From a virus, in IMG/VR virus record IMGVR_UViG_3300028138_000003, positions 429-64,428 of that record: a stretch of DNA of 64,000 nt; one strand, given 5' to 3'. Shown piece by piece: positions 38,408 to 63,504 of the stretch (positions are counted from its first letter, which is position 1; every line of letters begins with the position of its first letter). Position numbers and translations under genes: made by a program. The notes beneath the pieces were generated by a model, which searched no databases, had not been told where the DNA came from, and worked only from the letters and a program-made list of their open reading frames with translations.

Positions 38408-41400
38408 ATGGCTGCTGCGGAAGACGCTCCGGCCGAACAACAACCTGCACGCCCAGCATACTGGGATGCCCCGATGGGCGAAGGCGCTCCCGCGCCGCAG
38501 CACGATGACGCCGCCTCCATGGGCCGGCAGTCTGTCGCGGGTCCCGACGCCGAGCAGGAAGCGCCCCGGCCCGCCTACTGGGACGCCCCGCTAGCCGCGG
38601 CGCCCGAGCCAGAAGCCAAGCCGACCGAGGCCCCCAAGCCCGCTGAGAGCACTTTCGGTACTGACGTTCTGACGGGCATCGGTGCGCGCGGCGCGCAGAT
38701 GTATCACGGCGCCAAGGAAGCCATGGCGAACCACCAATTCTCTTCAGCGCGCGAAGAATTCTACCGAACCATGGTCCTTGGCGACGCCGTCCGCGACGCG
38801 GGCAAGGCAGGCATCGCGCTTATCGACGACCCGGTGGTGCAGGAGATCTCCAAGCACGTAGGCATGCGCCCTGACCAGTTCGTCCGCGGATGGTACAACT
38901 ACGTCAACCTGTCCGAGGAAGAGAAGCAGAAGCGCCTCGGCGAGCTCCAGCAGCAGATGGTCGAAGCCACCGGCAACATCGCCGAGGCGTCGCACGGTCG
39001 CGCGCTGGCGGGGCAGGTGTCACGCGAGGCCATGCCGCGAGAACACCAGTTTGCCTACAAGGCCCTGACGATGGCCCCCGAGATACTGGGCGGGCTGGGC
39101 ATTTCCATGATCCCCGGTGGCCAAGCCCCGGCAGCTGCGATGTTCATGTCCGACTTCGGACTCACCAGCTACGCCCAAGCGCGCGACAGCGGCGCATCCG
39201 ACGACCAAGCCAAGGTCTACGGCGTGCTCTCGGGACTCGCGGCCACCGTGCCTCAGGTACCCGTCATGACGGCCCTGCAGAAGACCCCCGCGGCGCAGGC
39301 GCTTATGCAGACTGCGATCGGCAAGGTACTGGCCCAGAACGCCGCCGGCCGCGTAGCGGGCGCCGTAGCGAGCCAGGCGACCAACGAGTCGCTGGCGCTT
39401 GCCGTCCAGAACACCCTCCAGATCGCCATCGACAAGGGAGTGCTCGACCAGAACACCACCCTCGGCGAGGCGCTGCGCACGATCGGGGAAGGCGCGCTCA
39501 TGGGCGCGACCTTCGGCTCCTTCAGCGGCGCCGCACACAGCGGCGTCAACCGGCTGGTCAATGGTCCTGCCGCTACGCAGGGCCCGGGCGCCAGCGACGC
39601 AATGACCAACCGCATCCTCGAGGCGCAGCACACGGCCATGGACGCCGCGCAGACTGACGCCGAGCAGGCGGCCTTGGCGGCAGGCGGCGACGCCCTCGAC
39701 GGCAAGGTAGCCGCCATTCAGGCGAACGCCCATGTCAGTGCCGAGCACGACGCCGCGACAGTGCACCAGACCCGGGTCGAGGCAGCCCGCAAGTCGGCCG
39801 AGGACGAGATCGCCAACGCGCAGGCGGCCGAAGACGAGCTGAAGAAGGATCAGGACTTCGGCGCCGCCGAGCGGCAGGCCGGCAAGGTCGGCAATGCCCC
39901 GAGCGCCGATGAGGCGTTCGCCCAGCGTGAGCAGGAGGGAGCGCTCGCCGCCAAGCGCGCGGAGGCCCAGAAGGACCGGGACTTCGTTCCCGCCAAGAAC
40001 CAGGCGGCCGATCAGGATGTCGCGCAGGCAGAGGTCGCCGAGGAGAAGGGCGGGGCCTCACCGGCCAAGCCGACGCTGGCCGAGGCGCTGCCGACCGAGC
40101 AGGTGAACGCCCTGCAGGCACTTAGGGACCGGCTGGCGGCCCAAAGATCGGCCAACGAACCGGCCAAAGAGACTACCGCCGCGGAGCGCCTCAAGGCGCA
40201 GAACCCGGAGGACGACTTCCAGCAGCTGGGTCCTGAGGTGCCTAAAGCCACCAAGGGCGAGCCCAAGTTCATCCTCGACCCGCTCGACGAGCTAGCCCCG
40301 GGCAAGGCCAAAGCCCCGGAGAAGGCCCCAGAGCCGACCGAGGATGAGGAGGAGCCAACGGGCGGCCCGCCCCCCGTAACGGCGCAGACGCTGGCTGAGC
40401 GCCGGCAGCAGGCCTTGGACGCAGCTATGGCCGCCAAGGTCCGCGGTCCCGTGGCCAAGGAAGCTCCGATAGCCGCCCACCGGCGCGACCTCACCGCACT
40501 GGAGCGGGATCTGCCCGCGCCGGCGGAGGGCACCACGCGCCTGTGGCGCGGCGGCAAGAAAGGGGAAGGCCCGGGTGAGCAGACCCGCTTTACTGACGAT
40601 CCGGCCGGCATCGCGATGCCCTTCGAGAAGGGATACGGCGGTAGGCTGTTCCACGTAGACGTCCCCACCGACCAGTTGGAAGGGTACCGCAACGGGCCGA
40701 ACGACCCGGGTGCTTTCAACCTACCCAAAGAACTGGCTGCAAAGGCGCAGGACTCTCGCAATCTAGCCAAGGACAAAGTAGCGCCGAAGGGCGCGCTGGC
40801 CGAGCGCCGCGCCGCCGCCCGACCGCCGCTGCAGCAGGGGGTCGACCCGGCCGAGCGGCTCCTCGAGGAGCAGGTCAAGAAGGACGCCGACGCCGCCGCT
40901 GCCAACCCGAAGGGCAAGCGACCCCCGCTGGTGCAGGGCCGAGACCTTGCGGGGCCGCTGATTGAGGCGAAAGCTCGCAGAGACGCCGAAGCCGCGGCGG
41001 CGCCTACGACCACCGAAGAGGCCCCTGCCCCAGCTACCGCCGAGGCACCGATCGCCGCTCCTGAAGCCGCTGAAAAAGAGTCGGCTCGCATAGAAGCCGA
41101 ACGCACGCGCCCAACCGATGCCCTGTCGGCGGCCCCGGCCAAACCGAACCGGCTGGCCGCGATCCGCGCTGCGCAGGAAAAGCGCAACCAGCGCATCCGT
41201 ACCCCGGCCGAGCAGAGCATCATCGACGACCTGCGCGCGGGGCGGGCGAAGAAGGGCGAAGAGCCGCCACGCTTCGCCGACGTGCGGCAAGCCAATGTGT
41301 GGAAGCGCATGAACGACGAGCTTGCCGAGCACCGAGCGGCAATGGACAAGGCGCGCGACGCCGGAGACGTGCGCGGGTATAACGCCGCAGCAGACAAGTA

Positions 41401-44400
41401 CGACGCGCTGCACGAGCGCATCATGCGTGTCGCCAAGCAGCAGGCCGAGGCACCCCCGGAGCGTCCGGCGCCCGGCTCCAAGCCCACTGGCCGGTTCGCG
41501 GCAATCAAAGATCGCGCCGCCAACCTAAAGCGTTGGTTCGGCAAGAGCGTGGTCAAGAACGCCGACGGCTCGCCGAAGGTCGTATACCATGGCACCCCGG
41601 TGTGGGAGCGCAACGGCAAGAGTCTCGGAGACGTCACGAGCTTCGATCGCAATGCTGCCGGCAAGGCGCTGAACCGCACGCCAGGGATGGACGCCGTTGG
41701 CTCGTGGTTCACAGATAGTCCTGAGGGCGCGGGCGACTTCTCGGGTAGCGAAGGCGTAGTCTACCCAACGCACCTCAAGATCGAGAACCCGTGGCGCCCC
41801 ACGAGCTTCGACGAGTTCCTTGCCCGTGGCCGCAAGGCTGCCGGCCTGCCGCCCAAGGGCAATCCAATGGGCCGGTTCGATCCGCAGTACCTGCGCAACG
41901 AGCTGAAGAGGGCTGGGCACGACGGCATTATCTTCCCGAGCATGAAGATCGATGGCCGCGAGCAGCAGTACCACGTCGCCTTCGAGCCAGAGCAGGTGAA
42001 GTCAGCTGTCGGCAATAGTGGCGACTTCGATCCAGCCAATCCCGACATCCGCAGCAAGACGGCCGAAGAGAATATAGCCGAGGACATGGACCGCGCGACT
42101 AACCCGCGCATGACCAAGGACGAGGCGACCGAGCACCTCAAGCCGGTGCTCGCCAAGATCCACCCCGCGGTGGCCGCGCGCACGCACGTGCACGGCGACA
42201 AGAATGACGCACTGGCCCTGCCCGATAGCCAGCTGTCTGCGCGCACCAAGGAGCAGTTGCGCAACTACGAGGGCACGCCGGCGGGCCTGTACGACCCCGA
42301 CACGAACACTGTGCACGTCTTCGGCGACGGGCATCTGGCCAGCCCGACAGACGACGGACGTCCGGGCGGGCAGAGCGAAATCATCAAGACGCTGGCCCAC
42401 GAGTACACGCACATGGGTCTGCGTAACATATTGGGCGCCGACTATCGGAAGACCATGCTCGACCTCGCCAACAAAGTGAAGAATCGACAGCTCGCCAAGG
42501 ACCTCATCGAAGCGCGCGGATTCGACGTAGGCAGCGAGGAACACATGACCGCCCTTGGCGATGAGTACGCGGCGCACTTGGCCGAGGACGCCAACGCCGA
42601 TCCGGGCCTCTGGCGAACGGTCGTCGACGGCGTGCGGCGTGCGCTCCGCAAAGTCGGCTTGGTGCGCAACTGGACCGACGACGATATTCGCGATCTGGTA
42701 CGGCGCAACAACCCGATGCTAGGCGAGACCGATGCCGCGGCTCGAGCGGGCCTCGCGTACAAGGGCGACGTCCCGCGGTTCGCCGACAACAAGGCGACGG
42801 ACCACCAGATCGATCGCGATCTCGACCCGACGGATCCCAAGGCGATCCAGTACAAGCTGGCGCGCACTGTGGAAGAGCAGATGGACGCCAACCGGGGCTC
42901 GATCGACTCCCGCACAGCGTGGGACAACTTCGTGGCGCAGGCCCAGAAGACAGGACGCAACTTGGCCGAGTGGGGCCGGGGCACCAATGACAACAAGCGG
43001 CTGGGCTGGATCGGGCTTCGCAACATGATGGACTTCATGCGCAAGGACCTAATGCCGGACCTCCATGGCTTCATCGACGACCACGACGCGATGGATGGCA
43101 TGCGTGGGCGCCTCGTCAACGAGGGCGCGGACATCGCGCGCAAGTGGTCGAAGTGGCAGGCCAAGCAGGACGACCGAGGCTGGGGCTTGTCCGAACTCAT
43201 GCACTCCTCGACGCTGCTGGGGCACGACGCCTCGAAGCCGTACGAGTCGCAGTACACCAAGGAAGAGCTGGCCGAGTCGCCCGACAAGCGTCAGGACGAT
43301 CGGTATCAGCGCGCCCTGCATGCAGGGCTGAAGAAGACTTACGACTCCGACGCTCTCGGCTCCGAAGGCCGCGAACTCTACAACACGGTGCGCGACCACT
43401 ACGCGACTGCCCGGCAGCGCATCTTCGACGCGCTCACCCGGCGTATCGAGGAGACTGGCGCAGACGAGAACACGAAGAAGCAGCTCATGGCGGAACTCCG
43501 GCAGCGGTTCGAATCTGGCCGGGTCAAGGGCGTGTACTTCCCGCTGCAGCGCTTCGGCAACCGCTGGGCCCGCGCGATGGACGCCGAGGGCAACCACGTC
43601 GCCTTCTCTCGCTTCGAGAACAAGGACGACCAAGACCAGTGGCTCAAGCACATGCGCGATCAGGGGCTGGAGGTCGACAAGGGTCAGCAGATCGATTCGA
43701 AGTCTGAGATGGAGCGCATCGATCCCGACTTCGTGAAGAAGGTCATGTCGCTGGCGCACGACGCGGACGGCTCCGGCGAGCTGGAGAAAGAGATCTGGCA
43801 GACCTACCTCAAGGCCATGCCTGAGATGTCGATGCGCAAGCACTTCATCATGCGGCAGGGGCGGCTCGGCTTCTCGCAGGACGCGCTGCGCGCGTTCGCC
43901 TACAACTCATTCCATGGCGCTCACCAGCAAGCACGGCTGGAGTATGGCAATAGACTAGATACTCGACTAGCAAATGTGAAGAAGCAGGCCGAGGCGCTGG
44001 CGACCGTAAGTGCCCAGAATCCCGGCGATAAGCTTGCAGATAAGAACTCCGAGTGGGGCGCTGCGCTGGCCAAAGAACTAGAACAGCGACTAGATTGGAT
44101 CAAGAATCCGCGGTCCTCGCCGTGGGCGTCGAACCTCACTAAGTTTGGCTTCCTCTGGTACCTCGCCGCGGCACCGGCGACGGCGCTGCGCATCTCGCTG
44201 CAGAACACCATGCTGGCCCAGCCACAGATTGCCCGGCACTTCGGGCAGATCGGGGCGACCAAGGAACTGAGCAAGGCGGTGCTGCAGTGGGCCGGCGCCC
44301 GCGGCAAGCTCTCCGACAAGCTCCGCGGCGATGAGCGCGCGGCCTTCGAGCGCGCGGCCGACATGGGGATCTTCTCCAACACGAACACGACCATGCTGGC

Positions 44401-45625
44401 CTCGGGCGGCGAGGGCGCGCCGATGACTGGCGCGTATGATAAGTTCCAGCGCGTGGCCGGCTACCTGTTCAATGCGATGGAGCACAAGAACCGCATGACG
44501 ACCTTCCTCGCCACGTACCGGCTGGGGGTCAAGAAGGGCATGAGCACCGACGATGCGTTCAAGCTCGCCCGCAACGTGACGTGGGACAGCCACTTCGACT
44601 ACACCAACGCCAACCGCCCGGGCGTGCTGCAGAACGACTTCGCCAAGGTGGCGGGGCTCTTCCGCCAGTACGCTTGGGGCGTAACGTATCGGCTGGGGCG
44701 CGACCTGCGCGACTCCTTTAAGGCCGACTCCACGAAGGAAGAGCGCTTGTCCGCGGCGCACGCGTTCAGCAACACGATGGCGCGCATGATGCTGTACGCG
44801 GGCGTCACGGGAGTTGGTATCGGCTTCCCGGTCTACGGACTCATCTCCGGGCTGACCAACGCGATCATGAACCAGGTCGACCCCGACCGGCCGTTCGACA
44901 TGACTCAGGCGCTGCACGAGCACCTGCAGGATCACCTCGGCAAGACGGCAGCCGACTCGATCATGACCGGGCCTGCCAGCCAGATCACCGGCGCAGCACT
45001 CAGCCGCGGCGCGAGCTACAACGACATGTGGTACAAGCCACCCGATCGGGAGATGAAGGGCCGCGATCAGGTCATGGACGCCATGGGGCAGTTCCTGGGC
45101 CCGGTGGCTGCCATCCCGATCAACGCCGTCACCGGCGCGGACATGATGGCGCAGGGGCACTTCGAGCGCGGGCTCGAGCACTTCCTGCCGCCTGAGTCGG
45201 CGGCGCTCGCCAAGTCACTACGTTATAGCCAAGAAGGCGCTAAAAATCTAAAAGGCGATACAGTGGTCGACAAGAAAGAGCTGTCGAAGTGGGACATCGC
45301 GGTGCAGGGCGCGGGCTTCACGCCGCAGAAGATCGCCGCGCAGAACGAGATCAATACCCAGAAGCAGAACTACATCGACCGCGTGCAGACGCGCAAGCAG
45401 GCGCTCAGCACCAACCTGCGAGCCGCCATCGTGGCGAGCGACGACAAGGAAGAGAAGTCAGTGCTGAAGCAGGTCGACCACTTCAACACCGCGCACCCGG
45501 GCGATGCGATCGGCTGGCGCGAGGTGCAACAGATTCGCTCGGAGGCCCGCGCTGCGGCGCTCTCCGATCGCGGCGTCAGAGAGCCAAAGGGGCTTCGTGA
45601 GGAAGTCCAGAGGAAGTTCAAATGA
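38408..45625 (+). CDS. giant polyvalent virion / ejection protein (2405 aa) with an ADP-ribosyltransferase-like segment and a HExxH Zn-peptidase domain
   Basis: The ADP-ribosyltransferase-like segment lies at about nt 41570-42010 (VVYHGT...GxxF...HVAFEPE; H-Y-E-type signature with YHGT as in diphtheria toxin). The metallopeptidase motif TLAHEYTHMG lies at 42391-42420. The N-terminus is an Ala/Glu-rich coiled coil. The C-terminal roughly 1000 aa carry hydrophobic segments. Confidence 0.75.
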   Translation: MAAAEDAPAEQQPARPAYWDAPMGEGAPAPQHDDAASMGRQSVAGPDAEQEAPRPAYWDAPLAAAPEPEAKPTEAPKPAESTFGTDVLTGIGARGAQMYHGAKEAMANHQFSSAREEFYRTMVLGDAVRDAGKAGIALIDDPVVQEISKHVGMRPDQFVRGWYNYVNLSEEEKQKRLGELQQQMVEATGNIAEASHGRALAGQVSREAMPREHQFAYKALTMAPEILGGLGISMIPGGQAPAAAMFMSDFGLTSYAQARDSGASDDQAKVYGVLSGLAATVPQVPVMTALQKTPAAQALMQTAIGKVLAQNAAGRVAGAVASQATNESLALAVQNTLQIAIDKGVLDQNTTLGEALRTIGEGALMGATFGSFSGAAHSGVNRLVNGPAATQGPGASDAMTNRILEAQHTAMDAAQTDAEQAALAAGGDALDGKVAAIQANAHVSAEHDAATVHQTRVEAARKSAEDEIANAQAAEDELKKDQDFGAAERQAGKVGNAPSADEAFAQREQEGALAAKRAEAQKDRDFVPAKNQAADQDVAQAEVAEEKGGASPAKPTLAEALPTEQVNALQALRDRLAAQRSANEPAKETTAAERLKAQNPEDDFQQLGPEVPKATKGEPKFILDPLDELAPGKAKAPEKAPEPTEDEEEPTGGPPPVTAQTLAERRQQALDAAMAAKVRGPVAKEAPIAAHRRDLTALERDLPAPAEGTTRLWRGGKKGEGPGEQTRFTDDPAGIAMPFEKGYGGRLFHVDVPTDQLEGYRNGPNDPGAFNLPKELAAKAQDSRNLAKDKVAPKGALAERRAAARPPLQQGVDPAERLLEEQVKKDADAAAANPKGKRPPLVQGRDLAGPLIEAKARRDAEAAAAPTTTEEAPAPATAEAPIAAPEAAEKESARIEAERTRPTDALSAAPAKPNRLAAIRAAQEKRNQRIRTPAEQSIIDDLRAGRAKKGEEPPRFADVRQANVWKRMNDELAEHRAAMDKARDAGDVRGYNAAADKYDALHERIMRVAKQQAEAPPERPAPGSKPTGRFAAIKDRAANLKRWFGKSVVKNADGSPKVVYHGTPVWERNGKSLGDVTSFDRNAAGKALNRTPGMDAVGSWFTDSPEGAGDFSGSEGVVYPTHLKIENPWRPTSFDEFLARGRKAAGLPPKGNPMGRFDPQYLRNELKRAGHDGIIFPSMKIDGREQQYHVAFEPEQVKSAVGNSGDFDPANPDIRSKTAEENIAEDMDRATNPRMTKDEATEHLKPVLAKIHPAVAARTHVHGDKNDALALPDSQLSARTKEQLRNYEGTPAGLYDPDTNTVHVFGDGHLASPTDDGRPGGQSEIIKTLAHEYTHMGLRNILGADYRKTMLDLANKVKNRQLAKDLIEARGFDVGSEEHMTALGDEYAAHLAEDANADPGLWRTVVDGVRRALRKVGLVRNWTDDDIRDLVRRNNPMLGETDAAARAGLAYKGDVPRFADNKATDHQIDRDLDPTDPKAIQYKLARTVEEQMDANRGSIDSRTAWDNFVAQAQKTGRNLAEWGRGTNDNKRLGWIGLRNMMDFMRKDLMPDLHGFIDDHDAMDGMRGRLVNEGADIARKWSKWQAKQDDRGWGLSELMHSSTLLGHDASKPYESQYTKEELAESPDKRQDDRYQRALHAGLKKTYDSDALGSEGRELYNTVRDHYATARQRIFDALTRRIEETGADENTKKQLMAELRQRFESGRVKGVYFPLQRFGNRWARAMDAEGNHVAFSRFENKDDQDQWLKHMRDQGLEVDKGQQIDSKSEMERIDPDFVKKVMSLAHDADGSGELEKEIWQTYLKAMPEMSMRKHFIMRQGRLGFSQDALRAFAYNSFHGAHQQARLEYGNRLDTRLANVKKQAEALATVSAQNPGDKLADKNSEWGAALAKELEQRLDWIKNPRSSPWASNLTKFGFLWYLAAAPATALRISLQNTMLAQPQIARHFGQIGATKELSKAVLQWAGARGKLSDKLRGDERAAFERAADMGIFSNTNTTMLASGGEGAPMTGAYDKFQRVAGYLFNAMEHKNRMTTFLATYRLGVKKGMSTDDAFKLARNVTWDSHFDYTNANRPGVLQNDFAKVAGLFRQYAWGVTYRLGRDLRDSFKADSTKEERLSAAHAFSNTMARMMLYAGVTGVGIGFPVYGLISGLTNAIMNQVDPDRPFDMTQALHEHLQDHLGKTAADSIMTGPASQITGAALSRGASYNDMWYKPPDREMKGRDQVMDAMGQFLGPVAAIPINAVTGADMMAQGHFERGLEHFLPPESAALAKSLRYSQEGAKNLKGDTVVDKKELSKWDIAVQGAGFTPQKIAAQNEINTQKQNYIDRVQTRKQALSTNLRAAIVASDDKEEKSVLKQVDHFNTAHPGDAIGWREVQQIRSEARAAALSDRGVREPKGLREEVQRKFK

Positions 45626-46221
45626 TCGTGTATCTAATGAGACATGGGCGAACCGCGATGGACGTGCTCAAGCGTTCAGACGGCTGGCTGGACCTACCGC
45701 TCTCGGACAAGGGCCGCATGGGCCTCATCCCCGCGCAGCAGCACCTCAAGCTCGAGCCGCTGAGTGACATCTTCGCTCCGCCGTTGAAGCGCACGACCGA
45801 GACCGCGCACATCATTCAGTCGGGCGTGATCAAGGCGCCCAGCGTCGTGCCGTCGCCGGCAGCGATGACGTGGAACCTCGGCGTGATCTGCGGGCTCCCT
45901 AAGACCGAAGCCAGGCCCAAGGTCAAGGAGCTGCTCGGCCATCCGGATACCAAGCCGATCGGCGGCGAGTCGTACAACGAGTTCAAGAAGCGCGTCATGA
46001 CATGGTTCAGGGCGCGAGTGAAGGAAGCCAAGGCCAGTGGCAAGCCGATCCTGATCGTCTGCTCTGGATCCAACCTCCGACTGCTCGGCACGGTGCTGTT
46101 CAAGAACCGGGACGAGTTCAATCTGGATGAGGGCGGGCTCGTCAAGCTGACGCAGATCGATGGCAAGTGGCACGCGCAGACACTGATTGGCGACGGCGCT
46201 GATCCGGAGGAGATCTCGTGA
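45622..46221 (+). CDS. histidine phosphatase superfamily (phosphoglycerate mutase / SixA-like) protein
   Basis: N-terminal catalytic motif LMRHGRT and second Arg motif PLKRTTETA are present. The C-terminal conserved HG position reads IVCSGSN (His to Ser). ATGA-coupled to the giant protein. Confidence 0.55.
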   Translation: MIVYLMRHGRTAMDVLKRSDGWLDLPLSDKGRMGLIPAQQHLKLEPLSDIFAPPLKRTTETAHIIQSGVIKAPSVVPSPAAMTWNLGVICGLPKTEARPKVKELLGHPDTKPIGGESYNEFKKRVMTWFRARVKEAKASGKPILIVCSGSNLRLLGTVLFKNRDEFNLDEGGLVKLTQIDGKWHAQTLIGDGADPEEIS

Positions 46222-46694
46222 TGACGTCGAACGAGCTACGGGCGCTGATTCAGAAGACGCTCAAGCCGGTGCAACTTTGGTCGCCTGACGCCGAGGAGCT
46301 CCTCATGGCGACCGCGGCGCAGGAGAGCCACCTAGGGCAATACCGCCGGCAAACCGGTGGCGGGCCGGCACTGGGGATCTTCCAGATGGAGCCGGCGACG
46401 TTCAACGACATCTGGCTGAACTACCTCGCCTATCACAAGAACCTTGAGGCGGACCTGTGCGCGCTGGCGACCACGCAGCCGCCGCGCCCGGTCGAGATGG
46501 TCACTAACGACGCGTTCGCCATCCTCATGGCACGCGTGCATTACCTTCGGGCACCGGGGAGCTTGCCGGCTGCCAGTGACCTCGAGGGGCTCTGGGCCTA
46601 CTACAAGGCGCACTGGAACACCCCGCTGGGCGCCGCCACGCACGATCAGTTCACCAACAACTACAGAATGTTGGTCAACGGAGACGCAAGATGA
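46218..46694 (+). CDS. lytic transglycosylase (SLT-domain lysozyme), likely endolysin
   Basis: SLT catalytic region AAQESHLGQYRRQTGGGPALGIFQMEPATF (E-S...GLMQ-type) is present. A holin-like gene follows. Confidence 0.7.
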   Translation: MMTSNELRALIQKTLKPVQLWSPDAEELLMATAAQESHLGQYRRQTGGGPALGIFQMEPATFNDIWLNYLAYHKNLEADLCALATTQPPRPVEMVTNDAFAILMARVHYLRAPGSLPAASDLEGLWAYYKAHWNTPLGAATHDQFTNNYRMLVNGDAR

Positions 46695-46876
46695 AGAACG
46701 ATTGCCGAGACTGGTTCGTGATGCTGCTCGTGGCCGGGGCGTGGATCTTCGCCAGCGTCTACCTGTGGAAGCACGCCAGCACTGCCGATTTCAGTATCTG
46801 GGCCGGTGTCTGCGGAACCCTGACCGCGGTCTACCACTGGCTAAACATCAGGGACCAAAAGGAAAAGGATCAGTGA
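46691..46876 (+). CDS. holin-like two-TM protein, 61 aa
   Basis: Two TM helices and a charged C-terminus (NIRDQKEKDQ). ATGA-coupled to the lysozyme gene. Confidence 0.5.
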   Translation: MKNDCRDWFVMLLVAGAWIFASVYLWKHASTADFSIWAGVCGTLTAVYHWLNIRDQKEKDQ

Positions 46877-46877
46877 C

Positions 46878-47120
46878 ATGAGCGACGAAATAATGATGGA
46901 CATCCAACGCACTCTCGGCCGCATCGAGCAGAAGATCGACAGCCACGTGGAAGCGTTCGACAAGCATGTCACCATGGACATGGAGGCCTACAAGGCCATC
47001 GGTGCGCTCAGGACTGATACGGCGAAGCAGAAGGGTTACATGACGGCCATGGGGGCCATCGGTGGCGTTGTGGTTACTGCGCTAGGATACCTAGTCGATA
47101 GGATGTTCGGCCAGCACTAA
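46878..47120 (+). CDS. small protein with C-terminal TM anchor, 80 aa
   Basis: The TM anchor is GAIGGVVVTALGYLV. It could be an antiholin, or a partner of the SPFH protein. Confidence 0.4.
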   Translation: MSDEIMMDIQRTLGRIEQKIDSHVEAFDKHVTMDMEAYKAIGALRTDTAKQKGYMTAMGAIGGVVVTALGYLVDRMFGQH

Positions 47121-47143
47121 CCCCACGGATACTGAGGTGACTC

Positions 47144-47701
47144 GTGTTTGATAAAATCTTCGAGATCATCCAGGCGTGCTTCGAGGCGCTGATTCCGTGC
47201 GTCATCATCTACCCTTTTGAAAGGGGACTCCTGATCCGGCTCGGGAAGTTCAAGCGCGAGCTGGCCCCCGGCTTCCACTGGTGCTTCCCGCTCCACATCG
47301 ACGCTGTTCTGCATGAGCACATTACCGTGCGCACGGAACACCTCTCGGGACTCGCCACAACCACAGCGGACGGTAAGAGCGTAGGTTTTGACGCCATAGT
47401 CACGTACCGAATATCTAACCTCGAGAAGGCACTCCTCGAGGTGACTGATCTCAAGGACGCGGTCGCAGACACGTGCACCGGGCAGATCGGCACCACACTT
47501 GCCGAATCGGACTGGGGCGCCATTTGCCGCGGCGAGGTTCTCGACAATCTTGCTGCAGTATGCCGCAAGCGGGGATGGAAATACGGAGTAGAAATAATCT
47601 CTGTTCAGCTGGCGGGCGTAGCGCTTGTACGCAACTTCCGGATCAGTACTGGTCAGTCCCAACCACACGTCACGCATATCGTTCCTAGTCCCGGGATGTA
47701 A
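47144..47701 (+). CDS. SPFH / band-7 domain protein (HflK-like)
   Basis: ERGLLIRLGKFKRELAPGFHWCFPLHIDAV parallels the HflK stretch ERGVVLRFGKFSHLVEPGLNWKPTFIDEV. VTYRISNLEKALLEV parallels VQYRVTNPEKYLYSV. An N-terminal hydrophobic segment is present. Confidence 0.7.
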   Translation: MFDKIFEIIQACFEALIPCVIIYPFERGLLIRLGKFKRELAPGFHWCFPLHIDAVLHEHITVRTEHLSGLATTTADGKSVGFDAIVTYRISNLEKALLEVTDLKDAVADTCTGQIGTTLAESDWGAICRGEVLDNLAAVCRKRGWKYGVEIISVQLAGVALVRNFRISTGQSQPHVTHIVPSPGM

Positions 47702-47779
47702 TTTTCCAATTGTAGATCCGGGCCAGAGGATAGCTTTCAAGAGATCTGGGGTCATTGCGATTGCTCTTGCGTCGGGGGC

Positions 47780-54777: not shown

Positions 54778-55750
54778 TTACAGCCAGTGGGGGTTTTCTA
54801 GTGTCCATGTGACAGTCTTGAATAAGGCCTGCTGGAACGTCGCTGGCGGTCGCCAGCCCATGCGCGCAAGTTTGCTACCGTCGAGCGCGTAACGCAAGTC
54901 GTGCCCGGGCCGGTTGCCGTCCCCGGTCAGCTCGTACCGCAAGCCCTCGCTCATGATGAAAGCGATGCTCTTGGCCAGCTCGGCGTTGTCCACCTCGCGC
55001 TCGCCGACGATATTGTACTTGTCGCCGGGCACGCCATTCTGCAGCACGAACAGCACCGCGTCGGCCACAGCCTTGGCGTGAATGTAGAACCGCGAGCCGG
55101 CCTTCGTGCGCTCCGGGTTGGAGTGGATCTGCACCGTTTCGCCGTCGCGGATCTTGCGGATGGTGCTCGGGATGAACTTCTCGGGGTGCTGCCGCTCGCC
55201 CATGACATTCATGGTGTGCGTGATCAGCGCGGGCACGCCGTAGGTATTGTGGAACGCGATCGCGAGTTCCTCGCCTCCAGCCTTGCTAGCACTGTAGGGG
55301 TTAGTTGACTTGTATCGATCCCATTCTTTGTAAGCAACGCCCGGAGGAGCGCTGCCGAAGACCTCATCAGTAGAGAAGTAGAGAAGCCGCCCGCAGCCAA
55401 CTTGTCGAGCGTAGTTAAGTAGGTTGCAAGTGCCAACGACGTTCTCTTCGACAAACGAGAGCGGGTCCGCGATGCTGCGGTCGACGTGCGTCGCCGCCGC
55501 GAGGTGGATGATGTGGTCAAAGGGGCCTCCTAGCTGGCTGACGAGCTGCCCGTTGAGCGGTGCGCGCAGGTCGTGATAGAAGAAGCGGACGCGCGGGTTC
55601 TTTACCGCGCCAACCTCGGCCAGGCGATTCAGATTGCCGGAGATGTCGAGGCGGTCGATCAGCGTCAGGTCCCAGTCGGTGTAGTTGAGCAGCTCCTCGA
55701 CGAGGTGGTGCCCGATGAAGCCAGCGCCGCCGGTGATAAGGGCTTTCATG
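54778..55750 (-). CDS. NAD-dependent NDP-sugar 4,6-dehydratase (RmlB-like)
   Basis: The internal ATG at 55750 gives a 324-aa product. Motifs MKALITGGAGFIGHH, STDEVFG and YSASK are present (Rossmann GxxGxxG, catalytic YxxxK). Confidence 0.75.
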
Positions 55751-56147
55751 CTGTGTTCCTCTCCCGCTTCTCGATGAGCAGCTGCAGCTCCGCGCGCAGG
55801 CGCCAGATGGCCTTGGCCAAGTGGTAGGTTCCGTCGGTGTCCATGATCTGGCCCGTGCCGTGATCGAAGATATGCCGGAACGCTTTGTTCAGGTGGTCCG
55901 TGCTCTTCTCGCGGGCCCAGTGCATCTTCGTGCCGGGGTTGTGCTGCTTGTTGCCTTCCCATGCGACGCGCACCTCCTCGCGGAACGACAGCGGGAAGTA
56001 CCCGAACATGTAGTCCCACATGGGGAGCCGCTCTCGCTCCGTGGGCGGCTTGGCTGTCGCCGGCTGCAGCACTGGCGGCTCGGTGCGGATCACGTTGGGC
56101 ACCTCGTCGTAAGCGCAGTCCAAGCACTTGTGCTCGCTCACTGCTTG
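55746..56147 (-). CDS. hypothetical protein, 133 aa
   Basis: GTG start overlaps the upstream stop (GTGA). The product begins VSEHKCLDCAYDE. Confidence 0.35.
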   Translation of the reverse strand, partial: QAVSEHKCLDCAYDEVPNVIRTEPPVLQPATAKPPTERERLPMWDYMFGYFPLSFREEVRVAWEGNKQHNPGTKMHWAREKSTDHLNKAFRHIFDHGTGQIMDTDGTYHLAKAIWRLRAELQLLIEKRERNTA

Positions 56148-56416
56148 CGCTCCATGGTGTCCTCGCCATCGGAGTAGAAGATCTTTGGCGTCTTGGTCTC
56201 GCGCGTCAGAGCGGTCACCATGGCCTCCGCGAACACTCGAGCGATCGTCTCGGGGGTGTAGATCTTGCCGGTGCGCAGCAGCCCGCCGATGTACGCCCCC
56301 TCGGCCACGATGCAGGCGAACAGCAGTCGCGAGTCGTGGACGAGCGCTAGTGGGCCTAAGGCGGCGCCAACGGCATCGCTGCAAGCCAGCAGCGCGTCTT
56401 GCTCAATATTGCTCAC
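56138..56416 (-). CDS. hypothetical protein, 92 aa
   Basis: ORF-track call. ATGA overlap with the phosphoesterase gene stop. Confidence 0.35.
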   Translation of the reverse strand: MSNIEQDALLACSDAVGAALGPLALVHDSRLLFACIVAEGAYIGGLLRTGKIYTPETIARVFAEAMVTALTRETKTPKIFYSDGEDTMERKQ

Positions 56417-62193: not shown

Positions 62194-62407
62194 AGTGCAT
62201 CCTCGGTAGCAATTGTCCAGTTCCAAGGCACCGCGGGCAGCCGCTGCCCTTGCGCACCGTGGTCTTCTCGGCGATGCCCTCCTCGTCGCGCGTGCGCCGT
62301 GTGAGCGGCGCGCCCTCTGAGTCGAGCATGGAGTCGCATGTGGCCGCAGTGTATCCGATGCCTTGGCACTCGGGACACTCGGTGTGGGAGGCTTTCGTGG
62401 TTCTCAT
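62192..62407 (-). CDS. Cys-rich protein, 71 aa
   Basis: CPECQG and CPRCLG motifs (zinc-ribbon-like). ATGA overlap with the GT9 gene stop. Confidence 0.4.
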   Translation of the reverse strand: MRTTKASHTECPECQGIGYTAATCDSMLDSEGAPLTRRTRDEEGIAEKTTVRKGSGCPRCLGTGQLLPRMH

Positions 62408-63504
62408 GCCGGCGGACTCCATACAGGGGCCTTCCCCGTGTTCATACATTCTTGCAGGGCCGACCACACCCACTCGGGCTTGGTCTCAGTGGTGCACTGC
62501 GCCACCTGCGTCTGCTTGTTCTGCAGGCAGCCCTCGAAACCAGGCAGCAGCTTGTGGCATGCTGGGACTTCGTTAGCGCCGCGCCCGGGGCAGTGCGTGT
62601 TCGGCGCCCAGATGCTCGTGGTGTTGACCCAGTCACGGGTCAGGTTCTCGATCGTGCTGTGGGTCAGCAGGCAGATCTTCGGCATGGGGTAGAACGCAGA
62701 GGCCGACATCACGCCGGTCTCGGGCCCTACGACCACGTCGGCCGACTCCATCATGAGCATCACCTGCCGCATGGTGTACTTGCCCGCAGTCAGCCACATG
62801 CGTGGCCGGCCATCGAACCCCTGTTCTAACGGCGTGCAGGTCGCGTCGCCCACAGTCAGGACGCCCCACGACGGGTAGTGCCGCAGCACGTGCTCCCACA
62901 CCTTGTTGGCGTGCGGGTAGACCTTGTGCCCTCGGCTGCTGCCGGCGAGGTTCCACAGGATGTACTTCTCGATGCCGGCTTTCTTCATCTTGGCCAGCTC
63001 GCGCTGCCGCCACTCCTGCTCCTCGTCTGTCGAGTAGAACTTGAAGCTCGGCACGTATGCGCATTCCGCCAAGCGGTGCTGGTGCTCGAGGTAGTTGACA
63101 TTCATGAGCGCGTGGCGCGCCTTAGCCGGCCACACGAAGCGGATGTTGCCCGGCATGGCCAGCAGGTTGGCCTCCACCGACTCGGTGAGGTTCACCCACT
63201 TGTCGAATTTCTTGCCGCCCGGGGCGCCGTAGTTCTCAAACCAAGGCCAGAAGAGGCCGAGGTGCGCCATGGGGACTTGGTTGATCGTCTGCACGACGAG
63301 CCGGTCGATCGACGGATCGTGGATCACGATCTCGTGGCTCGGGTGCTGCGACACGAGGGTCACGTGGTACCCGTCTTTCTTTAGCTGCGTGATGATGCTC
63401 ATCGCCTGCGCGACGTCGCCGAAGGCACCGTAGCGCACGACGCACGCTGTGGGCAGCCCCTGCGGGTTTTTCTTTTCTTTCCAGCTGAATCGTTGCGTAC
63501 TCAT
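62404..63504 (-). CDS. GT-B glycosyltransferase, family 9-like (heptosyltransferase-type)
   Basis: The C-terminal region MESADVVVGPETGVMSASAFYPMPKICLLTHST resembles the GT9 donor-binding motif (D-SG..HLA.A.G.P...LFG). TGATG-coupled to the C-methyltransferase gene. Confidence 0.6.
   Translation of the reverse strand: MSTQRFSWKEKKNPQGLPTACVVRYGAFGDVAQAMSIITQLKKDGYHVTLVSQHPSHEIVIHDPSIDRLVVQTINQVPMAHLGLFWPWFENYGAPGGKKFDKWVNLTESVEANLLAMPGNIRFVWPAKARHALMNVNYLEHQHRLAECAYVPSFKFYSTDEEQEWRQRELAKMKKAGIEKYILWNLAGSSRGHKVYPHANKVWEHVLRHYPSWGVLTVGDATCTPLEQGFDGRPRMWLTAGKYTMRQVMLMMESADVVVGPETGVMSASAFYPMPKICLLTHSTIENLTRDWVNTTSIWAPNTHCPGRGANEVPACHKLLPGFEGCLQNKQTQVAQCTTETKPEWVWSALQECMNTGKAPVWSPPA

Follow-up and report, generated by a model that had tools for sequence, protein, structure and literature searches.

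A phage-only branch of histidine-phosphatase homologues with a remodelled active site and a possible place in the phage head

Identification of a histidine-phosphatase homologue

The 64,000-nucleotide stretch of virus DNA analysed here (positions 429 to 64,428 of IMG/VR record IMGVR_UViG_3300028138_000003, referred to as the window) carries on its plus strand a gene for a 199-amino-acid protein of the histidine-phosphatase (HP) family. The HP gene is a genuine branch 1 histidine-phosphatase homologue and, judged by sequence, belongs to a discrete, uncharacterised and phage-only branch with the same three pocket changes in every member. The favoured reading, to which a probability of about 50% is given, is that the gene encodes a late-made, probably head-packaged phosphoryl-transfer enzyme.

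Features of the HP gene
45622..46221 (+): HP gene, 199 amino acids (aa), 21.9 kDa, pI 9.4, without N-terminal extension; open reading frame (ORF), PF00300, AlphaFold2 (AF2) model, Foldseek
45622..45625 (+): ATGA shared by the HP start and the stop of the polyvalent-protein gene upstream (translational coupling); sequence and ORF ends
45640..45648 (+): Arg7-His8-Gly9 codons, RHG motif with the phospho-accepting His; sequence, 138 of 141 family sequences, the other three gapped
45661..45681 (+): Asp14 to Asp20 codons (D-V-L-K-R-S-D), Asn replaced by Asp14, Arg18 kept, Arg/Gln replaced by Asp20; PhoE alignment, Asp14 and Asp20 in 141 of 141
45790..45792 (+): Arg57 codon, second catalytic Arg, in the L-K-R-T-x-E-T-A motif; 141 of 141, PhoE alignment
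45967..45969 (+): Glu116 codon (G-G-E-S), aligned to the proton-donor Glu of PhoE; 140 of 141
46060..46080 (+): C147-S148-G149-S150-N151-L152-R153 codons (C147 to S150 at 46060-46071), Ser148 at the position of the second catalytic His; PhoE alignment, Ser148, Gly149 and Arg153 in 140 of 141

The ORF and its RHG, R-T-x-E-T-A and CSGS motifs are present in the sequence as described in the original prediction. The protein starts with MIVYLM-RHG-RTAMDVLKRSDGW; residues 55-62 read LKRTTETA, in which K56-R57-T-T-E60-T61-A62 make up the second-Arg motif, and residues 145-153 read IVCSGSNLR. The HP start codon (ATG, 45622-45624) overlaps the stop codon (TGA, 45623-45625) of a 2405-aa ORF (38408..45625) as ATGA, and a Shine-Dalgarno-like GAGGA is located 7 nt upstream of the start. 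At the other end, the HP stop codon (TGA, 46219-46221) overlaps the GTG start at 46218 of the next ORF. The predicted ATGA coupling to a giant effector gene with an ADP-ribosyltransferase (ART) domain is thus borne out by the ORF ends and an ART-PolyVal match of 63.6 bits.

Against the Pfam profile His_Phos_1 (PF00300), the HP protein scored 88 bits (cut-off 21.7, E 8.2e-25), with residues 3-187 matching profile positions 1-190 of 194. In PHROGs it belongs to the unannotated family 12933. The top match in the PDB was PhoE/YhfR, with E 2e-8 in a single-sequence search and 1.8e-19 in a profile search (approximately 24% identity). Further sequence matches were TIGAR, cofactor-dependent phosphoglycerate mutases (dPGMs), alpha-ribazole phosphatase, phosphoserine phosphatase and glucosyl-3-phosphoglycerate phosphatase (E 6e-10). 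An AF2 model built with 38 homologues reached a mean predicted local-distance-difference score (pLDDT) of 89.9 and a predicted template-modelling (TM) score of 0.87. With this model Foldseek returned 298 PDB matches at E <= 0.001, the best being PhoE (E 1.4e-13, TM 0.79), and the top 50 of the 298 all have the histidine-phosphatase fold (PhoE, TIGAR, phosphoglycerate mutases and alpha-ribazole phosphatase). PhoE, TIGAR and dPGM structures matched at E about 1e-13 to 1e-12 and TM 0.76-0.79, and CobC structures were found at E about 1e-12 as well. The whole cap region (residues about 80-140) is kept and aligns to PhoE residues about 85-135. Family membership, for which the original prediction had proposed a profile search, is confirmed by the Pfam score, and the possibility that the RHG motif is a chance match outside any such fold is contradicted by this score together with the pLDDT of the model and the Foldseek match to PhoE.

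Several hallmarks of branch 1 were found in the HP protein, namely the Pfam score, the alpha/beta phosphoglycerate-mutase-like fold, the RHG His, the second Arg and the Glu. The second His of the cluster of two His and two Arg is missing, and since Ser148 takes its position, the protein is a homologue with the fold rather than a canonical catalytic member. A SixA-type phosphohistidine phosphatase, as had also been suggested, is not supported: no SixA or phosphohistidine phosphatase chain was present among the 60 PDB matches listed per sequence search or the top 50 Foldseek matches (no SixA-specific profile was used), and the protein does not have the features of that type, which are closest similarity to SixA, a short chain of about 160 aa and the lack of a cap domain. 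An Ais-like periplasmic heptose-phosphate phosphatase with a role in lysis or the envelope was considered as well and is unlikely, because the chain is modelled from residue 2 onward as the first beta-strand leading into RHG, which would leave no room for a signal peptide.

A clade-defining remodelling of the active site

The clade was aligned first from 38 clusters and then from 141 sequences including the IMG/VR loci (40-100% identity). In a search of 5.8 billion clusters, 98 relative clusters were found (43-100% identity), every one of them metagenomic. Gaps aside, R7, H8, D14, R18, D20, R57, E116, S148, G149 and R153 are unvarying in the 141 sequences; for Ser148, the single sequence without Ser has a gap. 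In the profile alignment with PhoE (1h2e, 1ebb), the family segment 'LIVlSGSnlR' aligns on 'LIVTHGVVLK', which places Ser148 on the second His, and 'GGES' aligns on 'RGER', which places Glu116 on the proton-donor Glu. Asp14 and Asp20 align on an Asn and a Gln of PhoE, respectively. The aligned PhoE residues are presumably Asn16, Gln22, Arg59, Glu83 and His151, and we take the positions of Asp14, Asp20 and Ser148 to be those that contact the bound phosphate in the PhoE and dPGM complexes.

When the profile was searched against 1.84 billion representatives, 25,721 superfamily matches were obtained, of which approximately 20 scored 183-306 bits, while the next score was at most 148 bits. Asp14, Asp20 and Ser148 occur together in all 17 high scorers that span those positions; the others in this score range are incomplete, being fragments or truncated sequences. 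The other top matches, which do not belong to the clade, have Asn at position 14 in 104 of 132 cases, Arg (77) or Gln (19) at position 20, and His at position 148. As far as the sequences go, this pattern is a selected, clade-defining remodelling and not decay. The 'degenerate second catalytic motif' of the original prediction was thus correct in that the second His is replaced and wrong in the word degenerate, as Ser148 is fixed in 140 of 141 sequences together with Asp14 and Asp20. Since the nucleophile, both Arg and the acid/base residue are kept and the departure from the family rule is itself conserved, an active enzyme with altered chemistry fits better than decay.

Distribution of the clade

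No clade member was found in 50,697 GenBank phage records, in which tblastn with the HP protein gave only matches of 26-38% identity in unannotated contigs. A megablast search with 20 kb of the window against GenBank phages gave no match. The clade is present at 39 IMG/VR loci and in only 4 contigs among 185,579 species-representative genomes, all of them phage-like contigs of metagenome-assembled genomes (MAGs); one of the four is the IMG/VR contig of locus L039. The absence from GenBank, the IMG/VR loci and the four MAG contigs together indicate that the family is effectively restricted to uncultured phages. Two MAG contigs (L049, DASYXW010000091.1, and L050, DASZAN010000214.1) are both 57,124 bp long, gave identical query matches and lie in MAGs of two unrelated taxa, Terriglobia and Stellaceae; this looks like the mis-binning of a phage contig (with TerL, HP, portal and capsid genes) into the genomes of two bacteria.

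Genomic placement in relatives

Gene context was surveyed at 48 loci by marker mapping and clustering of neighbours. The HP gene is located within a head or virion module at approximately 41 of the 48 loci, the head association being found in at least six lineages, and it adjoins TerL or portal genes at about 20 loci. The following arrangements were distinguished, while no class was assigned to L001/L002 and L025/L026.

Arrangements around the HP gene
TerL, HP, one gene, T7-type portal, major capsid protein (MCP): 9 loci (L003, L008, L011-14, L017, L022, L023)
Portal, one gene, 331-aa (scaffold-size) gene, HP, MCP: 2 loci (L018, L019)
Portal, three genes, the last a family 2 glycosyltransferase (GT2), HP, one gene, MCP: 8 loci
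SU10 portal, then overlapping HP: L007 (HP protein 64% identical, phage related to the window)
MCP, one gene, SU10 adaptor, HP: 5 loci
TerL, one gene, HP: 6 loci (L034 group)
Internal virion or polyvalent protein, HP, lysin: window, L006, L009, L010, L016

It follows from these placements that the ATGA coupling to a giant gene is lineage-specific, while a position inside the head or virion module is the general case. Lysin homologues follow the HP gene directly in L006, L009, L010 and L016. A conserved pairing of HP with the 158-aa lysin was considered and rejected, as the genes after HP in L001 and L003 are unrelated and the lysin comes after HP only in the lineage of the window and in L016.

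Many HP proteins of the TerL-HP-portal class (P0027-P0063) have an N-terminal extension of 20-35 residues with the tandem motif SL[VLI]D...(G/D)SSL[VLI]D, for example MAGKSLVDEADGSSLVDP. This motif is missing from the window protein and could be a targeting or cleavage signal. Two other proteins (P0100, aa 1-245, and P0101, aa 1-213) have basic (pI 9.6-10), low-complexity N-terminal regions sharing KNNxxVFxxKPEPNRGxGxxR; no Pfam domain was found in that of P0100.

Fusions to portal proteins and the sister group

The HP domain was fused to a portal protein independently at least three times. Portal genes with a C-terminal HP domain were found at L030:1112-3556, L032:2278-4722 and L033:8276-10603, with Phage_portal scores of 276 bits (L030/L032) and 302 bits (L033). 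The portal at L039:6839-10609 and the P0106-type portal likewise end in an HP domain, and P0108 also matches both Phage_portal and His_Phos_1. Taken together with two proteins of the sister group described below (P0196, P0216), the fusions have a long flexible linker and involve at least three types of portal, namely HK97-type (PF04860), lambda-type (PF05136) and an unclassified type. The portal of L039 additionally holds a LAGLIDADG intein. Together with the head-module synteny, the portal fusions in relatives lend support to the earlier suggestion that the HP protein may be a virion component.

At L027/L028:8999-10597, the portal gene is followed by a gene whose product consists of a linker, a 2H phosphoesterase domain (2_5_RNA_ligase2, Acb1-like, LigT), a Cys-rich segment and an HP domain; in L027 the Cys-rich segment between the 2H and HP domains is zinc-ribbon-like. 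A separate 2H gene (L039:10609-11997), with a weak Phage_Mu_F match (24.5 bits, cut-off 29.6), is located directly after the portal-HP gene of L039. A general link between HP and 2H was rejected, since an iterative jackhmmer search of all ORFs of 47 loci and the window found 2H proteins only in L027/L028 and L039, which represent one lineage.

The next-best matches to the clade profile (97-119 bits) form a sister group with the motif R-x-R-G-W ... H-Y-R-N-L (P0254, P0252, P0196, P0216, P0223), in which the canonical Asn, Arg and second His are kept. A search of the GenBank phages with P0254 gave nothing useful. Fusions to lambda-type and HK97-type portals occur in the sister group as well (P0196, P0216), and its genes are also found after a putative portal gene (L053) and before a lysin gene (L054). 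The PG_binding lysin at L054:8130-10121 holds an intein (Intein_splicing/Hom_end_hint). Other domains fused to HP domains of the sister group are topoisomerase IB, the LigD 3'-phosphoesterase (LigD-PE), InPase (PF18823) and DUF5661 (P0212, P0143, P0175, P0189, P0188), which suggests a wider use of the fold in the chemistry of nucleic-acid ends and nucleotides on mobile elements. The 2408-aa protein P0223 (L048:1346-8572) contains ART-PolyVal at aa 1519-1763 and, 17 residues on, a canonical His_Phos_1 domain at aa 1780-1927; no second fusion of these two domains turned up. Apart from the ART domain, P0223 is unrelated to the 2405-aa protein of the window. Protein P0118 (1161 aa), which has no relation to the present finding, shows an odd architecture: it starts like a class I aminoacyl-tRNA synthetase (HLGH, ValRS/IleRS-like) and contains four tandem canonical histidine-phosphatase domains.

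Neighbouring genes in the window

Genes flanking the HP gene
38408..45625 (+): polyvalent or internal virion effector gene, 2405 aa; ART-PolyVal at aa 1052-1207 (63.6 bits), LPD39 at aa 1530-1712 (91.4 bits), DarB-like C-terminal region
46218..46694 (+): downstream gene, 158 aa, probable lytic-transglycosylase-like lysin; PHROG 3108, E 4e-43 (unknown function); SLT 15.4 bits, below the cut-off of 21.3
46691..47120 (+): two small genes of 61 aa and 80 aa, the second holin-like, a lysis cassette bounding the structural module; PHROG 689 (holin), E 3.5e-5, weak XhlA-like match

The plus strand of the window encodes an Sf6-like TerS, TerL, an SU10-type portal, a major head protein, the polyvalent protein, HP, the lysin-like and holin-like proteins and an SPFH protein. 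The replication block on the minus strand comprises an SNF2 helicase, a PolA-like polymerase, a single-stranded DNA-binding protein, DUF2800, an epimerase and a D5-type primase-helicase. The C-terminal 700 aa of the 2405-aa protein match the DarB-like antirestriction family PHROG 10089 (E 5.5e-126). This protein starts with a duplicated motif at aa ~12-62 (ARPAYWDAPMGEGAP and APRPAYWDAPLAAAP) and has an HExxH-like 'HEYTH' at aa ~1330, between ART-PolyVal and LPD39. The gene directly after HP had been called a lysozyme; its position is as described, but the SLT match is below the cut-off and the PHROG match is to a family of unknown function.

An SPFH/Band_7 protein (53 bits) is encoded at 47144-47701 (+), opposite an ORF at 47117-47755 (-) of 212 aa without a family match. 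As the SPFH/Band_7 match lies on the plus strand only, 47144-47701 (+) is likely the gene. An SPFH protein adjoining a lysis cassette is unusual. Genes of the minus strand encode an NAD-dependent epimerase/dehydratase (54778-56169, 167 bits) and a weakly matching heptosyltransferase-like protein of glycosyltransferase family 9 (GT9; 62404-63504, 20.8 bits, below the cut-off). In the related phage L006 (19129-20438), the epimerase adjoins a dGTP_diPhyd_N gene. The epimerase genes of the window and L006 and the GT9-like gene may have sugar-nucleotide or DNA-modification functions.

Proposed function and alternative explanations

In the favoured reading, His8 would take the phosphoryl group and form a phospho-His8 intermediate, Arg7 and Arg57 would hold the phosphate, and Glu116 would act as acid/base. 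The rest of the pocket would be rebuilt by the exchange of Asn for Asp14, of Arg/Gln for Asp20 and of the second His for Ser148, and these three positions would make it much less positive than that of the canonical enzymes. About three positive or neutral hydrogen-bond donors would be lost and two carboxylates gained, provided that the positions are the ones we take to contact phosphate; such a loss and gain would point to a metal-bridged or cation-bearing substrate. The enzyme would still be catalytic, acting on a different phospho-substrate or with a bridging metal ion, and candidate substrates are Mg-bound pyrophosphate, a nucleotide phosphate or a substrate with a cationic group. 2H phosphoesterases are the class of enzymes that make ADP-ribose-1''-phosphate in tRNA splicing. 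The associations with 2H, LigD-PE and topoisomerase IB hint at 2'/3'-phosphates of nucleotides or nucleic acids, and with low confidence the substrate may be a nucleotide- or NAD-derived 2'/3'/1''-phosphate as made by 2H phosphoesterases.

Because relatives are repeatedly fused to the portal or encoded beside it, the HP protein is probably carried in the virion. It would be expressed late, in the window co-translated with the giant polyvalent effector, and would most likely be head-internal cargo, delivered to or acting at the infected cell alongside the polyvalent protein, as a free-standing module of an injected effector set. There it may act early in infection on a phospho-compound derived from the host or from its defences. 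For the window protein itself, packaging or ejection is inferred from the relatives.

Several observations weigh against this reading. The structure paper on PGAM5 describes the two His and two Arg as an 'invariant positively charged catalytic cluster' (PMC5501728), and the second His belongs to it, so its loss may cripple catalysis. With two carboxylates by the phosphate site, a metal or a cationic group would be needed to keep a phosphate dianion from being repelled. The link to 2H is confined to one phage lineage. At L020 the HP gene follows a helicase gene, and at L004 it lies near ThyX, ribonucleotide reductase and NADAR genes, which belong to replication or nucleotide metabolism. The window protein is unfused and has no N-terminal extension of the kind found in many relatives, its place in the virion being deduced, and sites in late operons also tolerate unrelated 'moron' insertions. 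Moreover, a portal-fused domain cannot simply be ejected, and 'injected' may therefore be wrong even if 'head-internal' is right.

Among the alternatives, a non-packaged cytoplasmic phosphatase made late or as an auxiliary enzyme survives best, although it is unlikely on balance. It might serve a sugar-phosphate or nucleotide-sugar step beside glycosyltransferases and epimerases in the glycosylation of virion, DNA or envelope, resembling glucosyl-3-phosphoglycerate phosphatase, which acts after its glycosyltransferase and was itself among the PDB matches. The GT2 gene directly upstream of HP at 7 loci is in line with such a role, as are other sugar genes in HP phages (DegT, GT17 and Galactosyl_T in L001; NTP_transferase, DegT and epimerases in L004; an epimerase in L006, L048 and the window; the weak GT9 match of the window) and the position of HP outside the head module in L004 and L020. 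The GT2 adjacency is limited to one lineage, however, and a general link to glycosyltransferases or epimerases was not accepted, because the association is lineage-specific; it is kept only as part of this alternative. Furthermore, fusions in at least three portal families place the domain physically in the capsid, and the acidic pocket is unlike that of known sugar-phosphate histidine phosphatases.

It is doubtful that the HP protein is a non-catalytic binder of phospho-ligands, a pseudo-enzyme or 'sponge' sequestering a phosphorylated or cationic small molecule like the immune-signal sponges of phages. The loss of a His from the cluster called invariant (PMC5501728) would agree with such a role, and in fleas, salivary branch 2 proteins without the catalytic His are inactive and bind amines and leukotrienes (PMC10728186). 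These proteins are a parallel insofar as a catalytic His was replaced (His257 by Ser in XcAP-1) and a new function selected, as a His was replaced in the HP clade. Yet the flea proteins are members of branch 2, lack even the RHG His and are proven inactive, whereas the HP clade keeps the nucleophile and the other catalytic residues: His8, both Arg and Glu116 are absolutely conserved in the 141 sequences, and a pure binder would not need all four. Moreover, some family members retain measurable activity when the second His is mutated.

Very unlikely, though compatible with delivery by the virion, is a phospho-protein phosphatase (for phospho-His, -Arg or -Ser/Thr) directed against host signalling or phosphotransfer proteins, with two-component HPt domains, the PTS protein NPr or nucleoside diphosphate kinase (Ndk) as possible targets. 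Branch 1 does include the protein phosphatases PGAM5 (PMC5501728) and SixA, the latter acting on NPr and Ndk (PMC7948535, PMC12934123), and an acidic pocket could suit a cationic N-linked leaving group. Against this stand the lack of SixA or phosphohistidine phosphatases among the PDB and top 50 Foldseek matches given above, the full cap region, which is typical of small-molecule enzymes such as PhoE, and the lack of any contextual link to kinases or signalling genes.

Most improbable is the dedicated partner of the upstream ART-PolyVal segment suggested in the original prediction, which would dephosphorylate ADP-ribose-1''-phosphate or 2'-phospho-ADP-ribose: the ATGA coupling, the order of ART-PolyVal and His_Phos_1 in P0223, the 2H phosphoesterase fused in L027/L028 or adjacent in L039 and a NADAR gene 6 kb off in L004 speak for it, but L006, L009 and L010 keep the polyvalent-HP-lysin order without ART (only LPD39 in Pfam, and tblastn with the ART segment of the window was empty), in most lineages HP has terminase, portal or capsid genes as neighbours and no ART within 20 kb, P0223 is a single such fusion and belongs to the His-containing sister group, and domains of polyvalent proteins are generally viewed as independent weapons (PMC5512222). 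A general link between HP and ART was rejected on the same grounds, as ART is absent from the syntenic relatives and from the surroundings of most lineages.

Relation to known systems and implications

PhoE/YhfR, a phosphatase of broad specificity from Geobacillus stearothermophilus (1h2e, 1ebb), is like the HP protein in size (about 200 aa), in the RHG motif, the second Arg and the Glu, but has Asn, Gln and His where the HP clade has Asp14, Asp20 and Ser148; it is a cellular enzyme, whereas the clade is phage-only and head-associated. With dPGM, TIGAR, PGAM5, Sts-1 and CobC, the clade has the fold and the first half of the mechanism in common (RHG nucleophile, second Arg and Glu). Instead of their canonical quartet, the clade has two Arg and a single His, to which two Asp are added.

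The HP gene can also be related to effectors linked to polyvalent proteins, MuF or portals (PMC5512222, PMC9503650). For these effectors, packaging into the head and delivery along with the DNA are deduced from the fusion of an enzyme to portal, MuF or terminase proteins or from its gene lying next to theirs. In the window, the gene is coupled to that of a giant polyvalent protein with ART-PolyVal and LPD39, with synteny in L006, L009, L010 and L016. Fusion or adjacency to portal, MuF or terminase genes was found in relatives and not for the window gene itself; HP relatives are fused to portals, located beside a 2H gene that weakly matches MuF or contained in a polyvalent protein, whereas in the window HP has a gene of its own (199 aa) and is no domain of the giant protein. 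The terms 'phosphatase', 'PGAM' and 'histidine phosphatase' do not occur in the main text of the 2017 survey of polyvalent proteins (PMC5512222), nor do the histidine-phosphatase terms searched occur in that of the 2022 survey of NAD and ADP-ribose systems (PMC9503650). Literature searches for phage histidine phosphatases, virion proteins of the phosphoglycerate-mutase family and anti-defence histidine phosphatases returned nothing relevant, and no description of a portal-phosphatase fusion was found in the literature searched.

The fixed Ser/Asp/Asp around the phosphate site is a natural experiment in active-site rewiring and points to a new substrate class or a metal-assisted mechanism. The fusions of HP and its sister group to portal, polyvalent and end-processing proteins add a phosphatase to the enzymes that phages appear to carry in their heads. 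A bolder version of the favoured reading, speculative and rather unlikely as it stands, would make the clade a new mechanistic branch with a metal- or cation-assisted Asp/Asp/Ser site, packaged in the capsid, in some phages tethered to the portal, and delivered along with the DNA in order to destroy a phosphorylated molecule of the host. Such a molecule could be a damaged end of RNA or DNA or a phosphate-terminated product derived from a nucleotide immune signal. If true, this version would add a class of injected anti-defence enzymes that has so far gone unrecognised. Should the target be a molecule of host defence, the clade would provide a new anti-defence activity, and if the portal-tethered form works inside the capsid, it would represent a new kind of portal accessory function.

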